Shown piece by piece: positions 1 through 1,872 of a DNA stretch of 64,000 bases. The number at the start of each line of letters is the position of its first letter. The first letter of the stretch is position 1. A model generated the notes under the pieces. The model searched no databases and was not told the DNA's origin. It worked only from the letters and a program-made list of their open reading frames with translations. The DNA lies in the NCBI GenBank assembly GCA_947491025.1, contig CANLIC010000002.1:197123-261122 (forward strand). Direction: 5' to 3'. This DNA is from Myxococcales bacterium (lineage in GTDB: Bacteria; Myxococcota_A; UBA9042). The position numbers and the translations under genes were made by a program.

Positions 1-1872
1 TTCGCATCGGCGAAAGCTTCGGATGGAAAGCCCTTTACCGTGCATCGCCTGCCGATGATGACGCACTTCGTCGACAAGTTTGGCAACGTACCGCGGACAT
101 TCATCAATTCGACGCTCACCAACGGGGTCAACGTCTACCCGAGCTATGCCACCGCTTCATGCCACAACCCAGGCGGCGCCAAGTGCATCGCCGATGCCGG
201 CTGCGCGTCGGGCCAGCACTGCGCGGCAGGGCGCTGCACGACAGGCGCTGCGGCGCAGGGATGCGACGAGATCGTCGGCTGCCCCAGCGGCCAGACCTGC
301 AAGACCGACGGCCTGAAGGTCGCGTTGGTGGCTGAAGCGCAGCAGAAGTGGCAGGCGGCGATGCCGGGCTGGAAGCACGTCGGCCTGCGGGCGGACACCA
401 TCGCGCTGTGGTCGGGCGCGATTCACTGCATCACGCGGACCGTGCCCAAGGCGCCAGCCATGGATAAGTCGATCGCGGACGGCGCCTGCGTGCTCGGCAA
501 GTGTGGCTGTGCCGCGGGCGGCAGCCAGGGCGTCTGCGACGCGTCCTCGGACTGCTTCGGGCCAGAATGGCTCTGCAATTGCACGATTTGCACCGGAGTC
601 TGCGCAAGCGGCAAGGCGTGCACCGACGACGCCGATTGCTCGAGCAACGGCGTGACGGTCGTGGCGGGCGCTTGTGACTTCAACGAGAAGCAGGGCTGCT
701 ATGGGCTGCCACCGTTGCAGTCCGGCGGAGGCGGCGGGACGACCTCGCCTTGCGGCGCCCTCTCCTACGAGGGCAAGTGCGATGGCAACTCGTTGAGCTA
801 CTGCGACGGGACTCCGAAGGGGCAGACTTGCTCTGGTTGCTGCGGATGGGATGCGACGAGCAACTTCTATAACTGCCTATCGGGCAGCGCTTGCGACGGG
901 GCCTGCAAGCCAGAGTGCACCGCCGGCACCAAGGGCTGCTCGTCGACGGGGACGCACGCCTGGAGCTGCAGTGTGAGCAGCGGCTGCCCCAAGCGCGTCT
1001 ACGTCCACTGCAGCGGTGGCTGCGATGGCGCCAAGTCGGCCTGCAAAGAGACGGCGACGGCGGACGCATGTCCGACGGAGCCGGACGCGGGCGGGAGCGA
1101 CGCCGGCCCGACGGATGGCGGCGCAGTGGACGCTGGCGGCGGCGGCGACACTGGCGGTGGCGGCGACACCGGCGGTGGCGGTGTCGATACGGGCGGTGGC
1201 GCGGATACGGGCGGCGGCGGGGACACGGGCGGCGGCGGAGACGTCCAGCCAGTGGATGCGGGCTCGGACTCGCAGGGGGTCGACGTCGGCCCGCAAGACG
1301 GAGGTACGAGCGACGGCGGCGCTAGCGACGTCGGCGACTCCGGGGGTGGCGGAGGCGACAGCGGCATCGTGTGCAAGCCGAACTGTGCGTTGAAGAACTG
1401 CGGCGACGATGGCTGCGGCGGTTCCTGCGGCAGCTGCGGCGGGGGCATCTGTGGCCCAGCCAACTTCTGCATCGGCGCCGACGACGCCGGCTCGGTGGGC
1501 AGTGACGCTGACGGGGGCGACACGGCGGGTGGCGATGCTGCGTCAGGGGACGGAGCCACGGGCGACGCAGGGAAGGACGACGCTGGCAAGGGCGACGGCG
1601 GCGGCCCTGCCGGCGGGGACGGCGCTGGGGCCCCTGGCGACGCAGCGACCGACGTCGGCAGCCTGAACTTGCCTGACGGTGCAACGACGTCGAGCGCCAA
1701 TTTCGCAGTCGGAGGCAGCAGCGCGGGCCTCTGCCAGGCCAGCCCGCGCGGCGCCGGCGGCGAGGGCGCCTTTGGCTTGTTGCTCACGGCCGCCGGCGCG
1801 ATCCTGGCGAGTCTGCGACGCCGACGCGCCTGGGCCGACGACGACGAAGCGGGCGTCGGGACCGCGCCTTGA
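1..1872 (+). CDS. Secreted multidomain protein, 5'-truncated at the window edge. The visible N-terminal part ends in an agmatine-deiminase / Porphyromonas-type peptidylarginine-deiminase-like catalytic motif. Cys-rich modules, a (GGGGDT)n linker and a MYXO-CTERM-like anchor follow.
   Basis: Frame 1 is open from base 1, and the listed GTG at 40 is probably internal. The motif 'ADTIALWSGAIHCITRTVP' resembles the C-terminal catalytic-Cys motif (GGxIHCxTQQ) of the agmatine deiminase/PAD family. There are many CxxGQxC-type Cys pairs. The C-terminus 'GLCQASPRGAGGEGAFGLLLTAAGAILASLRRRRA' has a Cys, a hydrophobic helix and an Arg cluster, like a MYXO-CTERM sorting signal. Confidence 0.6.
   Translation, partial: FASAKASDGKPFTVHRLPMMTHFVDKFGNVPRTFINSTLTNGVNVYPSYATASCHNPGGAKCIADAGCASGQHCAAGRCTTGAAAQGCDEIVGCPSGQTCKTDGLKVALVAEAQQKWQAAMPGWKHVGLRADTIALWSGAIHCITRTVPKAPAMDKSIADGACVLGKCGCAAGGSQGVCDASSDCFGPEWLCNCTICTGVCASGKACTDDADCSSNGVTVVAGACDFNEKQGCYGLPPLQSGGGGGTTSPCGALSYEGKCDGNSLSYCDGTPKGQTCSGCCGWDATSNFYNCLSGSACDGACKPECTAGTKGCSSTGTHAWSCSVSSGCPKRVYVHCSGGCDGAKSACKETATADACPTEPDAGGSDAGPTDGGAVDAGGGGDTGGGGDTGGGGVDTGGGADTGGGGDTGGGGDVQPVDAGSDSQGVDVGPQDGGTSDGGASDVGDSGGGGGDSGIVCKPNCALKNCGDDGCGGSCGSCGGGICGPANFCIGADDAGSVGSDADGGDTAGGDAASGDGATGDAGKDDAGKGDGGGPAGGDGAGAPGDAATDVGSLNLPDGATTSSANFAVGGSSAGLCQASPRGAGGEGAFGLLLTAAGAILASLRRRRAWADDDEAGVGTAP
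1133..1243. repeat. Imperfect tandem repeat of about 18 bp encoding (GGGGDT)n within CDS 1..1872.
   Basis: The units ggcggcggcgacactggcggtggcggcgacacc... translate to GGGGDTGGGGDTGGGGVDTGGGADTGGGGDTGGGGDV. Confidence 0.8.

Follow-up and report, generated by a model that had tools for sequence, protein, structure and literature searches.

A likely exported deiminase of the PF04371 superfamily encoded as the second unit of a fused two-enzyme reading frame in a Myxococcales genome

The window analyzed here is a stretch of 64,000 nt from a Myxococcales bacterium (GenBank assembly GCA_947491025.1, contig CANLIC010000002.1, positions 197,123 to 261,122 of the forward strand), and it begins inside the gene that is the subject of this report. 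On the plus strand, frame 1 has no stop from position 1 until the TGA at 1870-1872; the 623 amino acids encoded there (1-1872) are the last 623 residues of a 1869-residue product, whose gene runs on for 3738 nt upstream of the window edge. The part within the window accounts for the C-terminal two thirds of a probably active guanidino-group deiminase of the PF04371 superfamily. Deiminases convert guanidino groups, such as that of arginine, into urea-like groups and ammonia. The opposite-strand open reading frame (ORF) at 999-2402 and other overlapping ORFs were set aside because homology backs the plus-strand frame 1, and they are regarded as artefacts of the high GC content (70.6%).

All parts of the fragment lie on the plus strand. 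Positions 1-147 hold the penultimate segment of the PF04371 catalytic domain, truncated by the window edge, in which the Asn of the motif FINST (aa 34-38) aligns with Asn297 of the Porphyromonas peptidylarginine deiminase (PPAD). A 55-residue module with eight cysteines (148-312) interrupts the catalytic domain after the VYPSY strand and ahead of the final beta-beta-alpha-beta unit, and its predicted local distance difference test score (pLDDT) exceeds 90 in the model of the homologue P0001. The last catalytic segment (313-447) carries the nucleophile motif WSGAIHCITRTVP (aa 137-149, nt 409-447), whose catalytic Cys lies at aa 143 (nt 427-429). This segment is followed by Cys-rich module B (448-705, aa 150-235), with 12 invariant cysteines including the TDDADC motif, and by the Cys-rich, beta-rich modules C and D (748-1071, aa 250-357), which are again modeled with pLDDT above 90. 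A Gly/Asp-rich low-complexity spacer (1072-1365) holds the (GGGGDT)n repeat, for which Tandem Repeats Finder reports an 18-nt unit in 5.8 copies at 1135-1242. A small CxPxCxxKxCGxDGCGGxCGxC module (1366-1470), many copies of which occur in other MYXO-CTERM proteins such as P0057, P0058 and P0061, divides the spacer into two, and the second low-complexity part (1471-1725) is rich in Asp, Gly and Ala. The MYXO-CTERM-like sorting signal (1726-1827) consists of Cys578 (nt 1732-1734), a hydrophobic helix (1768-1815) and the cluster RRRR (1816-1827), past which an acidic 14-residue tail, longer than in most relatives, leads to the TGA (1828-1872). The fragment contains 48 Cys residues.

The upstream part of the gene was obtained by an exact-sequence look-up of the neighboring acyltransferase gene (window 4360-5361, minus strand), which returned four contigs, one from the NCBI metagenome-assembled genome (MAG) GCA_964202665.1, one from an ENA assembly and two from Logan run assemblies. 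The mismatches to the window are 2 in 15,361 bases for contig L001 and 0 in 5,572 for L003. The gene is called as a single 1869-residue product in every recovered contig, and in L001 it lies at 13490-19099 on the minus strand. L001, L002 and L003 do not differ in a single nucleotide of this ORF.

Pfam family PF04371 (PAD_porph) matches the fragment with 31.5 bits (E = 1.4e-7, gathering threshold 25) in two stretches, the better of which aligns aa 112-149 with profile positions 284-321 of 321. On the whole ORF the score is 165.6 bits in four stretches, and the stretch at residues 990-1297, corresponding to profile positions 4-278, directly precedes the window part. The original prediction, made from the window alone, had read the segment around the GAIHC motif as a catalytic-Cys terminus resembling those of agmatine deiminases (AguA) and PPAD. 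This reading holds: profile searches assign the motif to PF04371 and to no other family, and the rest of the fold is present upstream. The 8-Cys insert, the CGxDGCGGxCGxC module and the upstream continuation itself are points beyond that prediction.

In 51-52 of 52 aligned sequences there is no variation at the positions equivalent to PPAD W127 and to the catalytic pentad (D130, H236, D238, N297 and C351), and the Arg at the position of PPAD R154 is invariant across the family. The roles of the catalytic residues of PPAD are documented (PMC4893104). Because these residues are invariant, the enzyme is probably active; the thiol of Cys143 would attack the guanidinium carbon, two Asp residues would hold the guanidinium and the His would act as general acid/base, to give a ureido group and NH3.

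The fold was compared on the AlphaFold model of P0001, which is built on the family alignment and serves as a stand-in for unit 2 of the ORF (58% identical to it). The model is confident over residues ~70-760 (mostly above 90; mean pLDDT 77.5). A Foldseek search with this model retrieves 1xkn (E = 9.9e-23, TM score 0.83), PPAD (2e-20), agmatine deiminases (about 1e-19) and the human peptidylarginine deiminases (1e-7), and the TM score of 0.83 to 1xkn, 1zbr and 3hvm points to a deiminase fold. The 8-Cys insert is without counterpart in PPAD, in agmatine deiminases and in distant family members such as P0054 and P0061.

The 1869-residue ORF consists of two complete deiminase units in the same frame without an intervening stop, which share 52% identity over 721 residues, and both carry all of the catalytic residues. 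Unit 1 (aa 1-859) comprises a signal ending in LGAAGC, the catalytic domain, Cys-rich modules and the tail GGCQAAGRGPGSGAGGLLMLVVALSALAWRRR, an internal tag with Cys827. This tail leads directly, with no intervening stop, into QLARLAACSALLSVGLGC, which holds the signal and lipobox for unit 2 (aa 860-1869). The lipobox-like sequence of unit 2, LSVGLGC, lies inside the fused ORF. The junction (L001 ~16500-16560) includes ...AWRRRGQVQLAR..., and in its hydropathy profile the loop RRRGQVQLAR separates a helix (839-851) from a second hydrophobic stretch (863-876), which ends at Cys878. This arrangement would form an out-in-out hairpin that would permit the export of both halves.

The short paralogue (810-860 residues) and the long paralogue (920-1000 residues) that follows it are separate genes in all 11 of the closest related loci having both; at the closest they overlap in a TGATG, and at the widest they are about 60 nt apart. 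Unit 1 is nearest to the short type (58% to P0023 and P0021), and unit 2 is nearest to the long type (58% to P0001 and P0005). None of the other 76 loci examined has two catalytic units in a single ORF, and a search of JGI metagenome contigs for the junction, or for a stop or indel variant of it, returned no match. Because the genes are separate in the 11 closest two-gene loci and none of the 76 other loci is fused, the fusion is a derived state of this genome. The gene seen in the window makes up the distal half of the two-enzyme precursor. The fusion would have arisen by stop loss between two tandem paralogues, and a myxosortase together with signal peptidase II could separate the two units of the precursor.

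Internal MYXO-CTERM motifs produced by gene fusion are rare, and one has been proposed for MXAN_5598 (PMC11980579). The fused ORF resembles that case in its internal tag but differs in that the tag directly precedes a lipoprotein-type signal, so that two lipid-anchored products could come from one chain.

It is possible, although rather unlikely, that the 1869-residue chain is not the functional product, with unit 2 being translated from an internal in-frame start or the missing stop being a recent defect. In-frame TTG, GTG and ATG codons occur just upstream of the junction, of which the TTG in ALAWRRR would yield MAWRRRGQVQLARLAACSALLSVGLGC, a good lipoprotein signal, and the separation of the two genes in all 11 close relatives points in the same direction. 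On the other hand, no obvious Shine-Dalgarno sequence is found by reading before the candidate starts, and at least two of the three assemblies with the identical ORF come from different read sets. The retention of all catalytic residues in both units and a junction topology compatible with the export of both also favor a functional two-enzyme precursor.

The placement of the two units among known deiminases was assessed with two clade hidden Markov models (HMMs), one built from 9 annotated agmatine deiminases from plasmids and the other from 24 PPAD-like proteins. Unit 2 scores 49.5 bits on the agmatine deiminase HMM and 60.3 bits on the PPAD-like HMM, and unit 1 scores 55.5 and 70.7 bits, respectively. 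Across the family the median difference in favor of the PPAD-like HMM is +4 bits (range -29 to +56). Members of the two reference clades reach about 480-535 bits with the HMM of their own clade and 57-82 bits with that of the other. Because the distances of the Myxococcota proteins to each reference clade are similar to the distance between those clades, these proteins form a third clade that is about equidistant from AguA and PPAD. Assignment to the AguA equivalog was rejected, as TIGR03380 gives 42.2 bits for unit 2 and 39.7 bits for unit 1 against a cutoff of 381.8, and membership in the PPAD clade was rejected at 60.3 bits for unit 2 against a member median of 535. The resemblance to AguA and PPAD that had been noted from the window therefore stands for the superfamily and the catalytic residues, whereas the protein belongs to neither of the two clades.

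An initial lean toward PPAD came from the family profile, which ranks PPAD first in the PDB (92.3 bits, compared with 78.8 for 1xkn and 67.3 for 2ewo), and from the relative P0061, which lacks the insert and aligns end to end with PPAD (99.6 vs 43.9 bits). Unit 2 alone does not discriminate in a phmmer search of the PDB (2ewo 30.4, 1zbr 30.1 and PPAD 28.8 bits). In a three-clade alignment, the family features form a mosaic of PPAD and agmatine deiminase traits. The carboxylate-binding loop reads YYxxRxxDD in the family, has the length found in PPAD (YNRPRPNDD) and keeps the R154 equivalent, and the length of the His loop and the "NS" after the catalytic Asn are also as in PPAD. The length of the Cys loop and the GxIHCIT motif are as in agmatine deiminases.

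A carboxylate-bearing arginine, either a peptide C-terminal Arg or free Arg, is weakly favored as substrate by the shortness of the YYxxRxxDD loop and by its invariant Arg where PPAD has Arg154, with agmatine as another possible substrate. Several observations weigh against this lean. The clade HMMs place unit 2 no nearer to PPAD than to agmatine deiminases, and their nearly equal scores make the inference of a PPAD-type substrate weak. The equivalent of PPAD Arg152 is Ala in unit 2 and varies among K, P, Q, H, G and A across the family, and the Arg of the WxRD motif, which is kept in agmatine deiminases and PPADs, is replaced here (WHID).

An extracellular agmatine deiminase, which would convert environmental agmatine into N-carbamoylputrescine and NH3 and would differ from the enzyme favored here in its substrate only, is considered unlikely but not negligible. 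Homologues are labeled "agmatine deiminase family protein" by NCBI and JGI, the top PDB match of unit 2 in the phmmer search is 2ewo, a putative agmatine deiminase from Streptococcus mutans, and an acidic residue four positions before the catalytic His is retained (compare ETDGH), in addition to the shared Cys-loop length and GxIHCIT motif. However, the TIGR03380 score is far below its cutoff, and the FN(A/G)WG(G) loop with its 5-10-residue extension, present in 9 of 9 aligned agmatine deiminases, is replaced here by YYANRHLDD, a loop of PPAD length. The genomic context also differs. The comparison plasmid agmatine deiminases mostly adjoin aguB-type hydrolases, carbamate kinase or transporters, whereas no adjacent aguB, carbamate kinase, putrescine carbamoyltransferase or transporter gene is found among the deiminase neighbors, which are instead ORF461, an epimerase, an acyltransferase and gyrB.

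Compared with known enzymes, the deiminase described here shares with PPAD (PDB 4YT9, 4YTB and 5AK7) the superfamily, the fold and the five catalytic residues, in addition to the loop features given above. The overall layout is also similar, in that a secreted catalytic domain is followed by a beta-rich stalk and a cleavable C-terminal sorting signal that leads to a lipid-type outer-membrane anchor. Unlike PPAD, it does not keep Arg152 or the WxRD Arg, it has an 8-Cys module inserted in the catalytic domain, and it has Cys-rich modules in place of the Ig-like domain and a MYXO-CTERM-like tail plus lipobox in place of a type IX secretion system (T9SS) C-terminal domain or dockerin. A Pfam scan of the fragment gave no match to the T9SS C-terminal domain PF18962. 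The hosts differ as well, being environmental Myxococcota here and Bacteroidota for PPAD. With AguA (TIGR03380; PDB 2JER, 2EWO, 3HVM and 6B10) it shares the PF04371 fold, the catalytic Cys, His and Asp, the Cys-loop length and GxIHCIT; unlike AguA, it has no FNAWGG loop, would be exported rather than cytoplasmic and has no polyamine-pathway neighbors.

At least 26 Cys residues in window aa 150-357 are invariant among 43 homologues, which fits disulfide-bonded modules folded outside the cytoplasm. The AlphaFold model of the Cys-rich modules has a pLDDT above 90 for aa 100-200, and a Foldseek search of the PDB with the post-catalytic modules gave no structural match (best E = 3.6). These modules recur in the non-deiminase MYXO-CTERM proteins P0057 and P0058, the latter with an NlpC/P60-like CSGYV motif, and for this reason they look like a general stalk. 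The modules at 748-1071 and their homologues may represent an undescribed disulfide-rich stalk fold.

The C-terminus of the fragment reads GLC(578)QASPRGAGGEG, followed by AFGLLLTAAGAILASL, RRRR and 14 further residues, so that the tripartite anatomy of a MYXO-CTERM signal (Cys578, the helix AFGLLLTAAGAILASL and an Arg cluster) is present. A C-terminus consisting of Cys, transmembrane helix and RRR is near-invariant across the family, and a Cys after the N-terminal hydrophobic stretch is found in at least 90% of its members. The MYXO-CTERM HMMs have cutoffs of 20 bits (TIGR03901) and 15.85 bits (TIGR03382). The tail of unit 1 reaches 13.3 and 14.4 bits on these HMMs, below both cutoffs, and among homologues the tail of P0026 scores 29.4 bits and that of P0001 19.1 bits (cutoff 20). 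As the anatomy fits but the score of the window tail is below the cutoff, the tail is termed MYXO-CTERM-like. The succession of Cys-rich modules, (GGGGDT)n spacer and MYXO-CTERM-like anchor envisaged in the original prediction is thus recovered, and the proposed cell-surface architecture appears to be a conserved one, with a lipobox-like Cys at the N-terminus, invariant cysteines, an acidic spacer and the Cys/helix/RRR tail.

In the MYXO-CTERM pathway, proteins are exported by Sec and anchored in the inner membrane by the C-terminal helix, the Cys is hypothetically lipidated, MrtX cleaves the protein, and surface display depends on the type II secretion system; a disordered spacer before the tag is typical of surface-sorted clients (PMC11980579). 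The deiminase resembles MrtX clients such as Myxococcus xanthus TraA in its Cys motif, helix and Arg cluster with a disordered spacer in front. It is unlike TraA and MXAN_5598 in that the cargo is a pair of enzymes rather than an adhesin or receptor and in that the window tail is below the cutoff. On the basis of the tail anatomy and the M. xanthus model, the protein is probably anchored at the cell surface. The enzyme would leave the cytoplasm via Sec and form disulfides among its many invariant cysteines outside, and the acidic disordered spacer would hold it away from the membrane. [quoted passage not shown] The lipobox-like Cys at the N-terminus may provide a second lipid anchor.

This assignment is tempered by the tail score of 11.1 bits on TIGR03901, by the unusually long 14-residue extension after RRRR, by the signal-peptide and lipobox calls, which were made by eye, and by the finding of no CPBP-like (myxosortase) ORF within the 64-kb window. 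The weak tail, its atypical extension and the lack of a myxosortase gene in the window would also be expected if the protein were kept in the inner membrane or periplasm by an uncleaved C-terminal helix, an N-terminal lipid or both, and were not displayed on the surface. Such retention is doubtful, as the orthologous tails reach or nearly reach the HMM cutoff and the disordered spacer before the tag is of the kind seen in surface-sorted clients (PMC11980579). A catalytically dead adhesin or stalk protein that reuses the deiminase fold is very improbable, since the dominance of Cys-rich and low-complexity modules shared with non-enzymatic MYXO-CTERM proteins (P0057) and the loss of the WxRD Arg are outweighed by the invariance of the pentad and of the W127 and R154 equivalents in 51-52 sequences including both units, which is unexpected for a pseudoenzyme.

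The product is therefore likely to be an exported, probably active, MYXO-CTERM-anchored PF04371 deiminase that forms the second unit of a fused precursor. Its likely role would be the release of ammonia or the modification of peptides on the surface of cells of Myxococcota that live in freshwater and are possibly predatory.

Among 5.8 billion proteins searched, 61 relatives were recovered, the best of which is 53% identical. Nearly all have 800-1000 residues, carry PF04371 and come from MAGs of uncultured Myxococcota or "Deltaproteobacteria", and the names "agmatine deiminase family protein" and "MYXO-CTERM domain-containing protein" have been given to some of them. A genome scan with one genome per GTDB species found 373 stretches that encode relatives. 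The best 80 of the 373 are all from MAGs, nearly all labeled Myxococcota, Myxococcales or Deltaproteobacteria, which does not agree with the earlier suggestion that such an enzyme would be unusual for a myxobacterium. Judged by isolate name, many of these 80 originate from lakes (Baikal, Erken and Loclat) and some from activated sludge, and no cultured organism is present among them or among the 61 protein relatives. By sequence, the proteins represent a distinct, widespread and uncharacterized clade of exported PF04371 deiminases in uncultured Myxococcota of lakes and sludge.

PPAD has been described as unique to Porphyromonas (PMC6147916). In a protein database search, the catalytic domain of PPAD has 1083 relatives at E<=1e-10 with 47-59% identity, which is at odds with that description. 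They come, among others, from MAGs of Cloacimonadota, Marinimicrobia, Bacteroidales, Ignavibacteria and even Thermoplasmatota, and many of them end in dockerin or T9SS tails. Secreted PF04371 deiminases are thus common in environmental bacteria and metagenomes. The clade from uncultured Myxococcota adds further PF04371 deiminases that appear to be fitted to a surface-sorting system of their own. Should they act on peptides or arginine, these deiminases would be a means by which nitrogen is released outside cells, or peptides are modified, in the communities of lakes and sludge, and they would help to place PPAD in an evolutionary setting. Whether a single chain with an internal MYXO-CTERM tag followed by a signal peptide can yield two surface proteins is a question for which the fused ORF offers a natural test case. 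A more far-reaching proposal, which is speculative and quite improbable, is that freshwater Myxococcota display C-terminal peptidylarginine deiminases on their surface, as a third lineage of bacterial protein-citrullinating exoenzymes with an independent origin, and that two of them are made here as a "polyprotein" whose internal hairpin is cut within the membrane by myxosortase and signal peptidase II to give two lipid-anchored enzymes.

The gene order is conserved in the closest dozen loci, in which a gene for a 1047-residue protein, the short deiminase, the long deiminase, (ORF461), the epimerase, the acyltransferase, gyrB and a gene for a Ser/Thr kinase-WD40 protein follow one another. ORF461 (1869-3254, plus strand) has a TTG start that overlaps the deiminase stop (TTGA) and a lipoprotein-like N-terminus (LALLALGAC), and it belongs to no Pfam family. 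It is weakly conserved, with 33-44% identity over the C-terminal third in the same position in 6 related loci, and may be co-transcribed with the deiminase.

Directly upstream of the fused ORF and outside the window, the gene for the 1047-residue protein lies at L001:19253-21002 on the minus strand. In 14 or more related loci it is 54-94% identical and invariably lies immediately before the two deiminase genes, and it may be an operon partner of the deiminases. An LBP/BPI/CETP N-terminal lipid-binding domain, which is unusual in bacteria, is detected in its product near the threshold (28.1 bits, cutoff 28.8).

On the other side, gyrB (window 6098-8758, plus strand), which contains a GyrB_insert domain, is convergent with the gene for the 1075-residue Ser/Thr kinase (8866-12093, minus strand), whose product has a long linker rich in Ala and Pro and, at its C-terminus, a WD40 propeller. 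Across related MAGs, both genes keep their synteny with the two deiminase genes. Further MYXO-CTERM tails were sought in the window and none was found. A secreted-looking protein of 915 residues encoded at 12191-14938 (minus strand) has dense CxxDxNxCTxDxC-type repeats, a Pfam Dicty_CTDC match and a weak InhA-like MAM match, and it lacks a MYXO-CTERM tail. The only RNA gene reported by ARAGORN and Rfam (gathering thresholds) in the 64-kb window is a tRNA-Val (GAC) at 38382-38457 on the plus strand.

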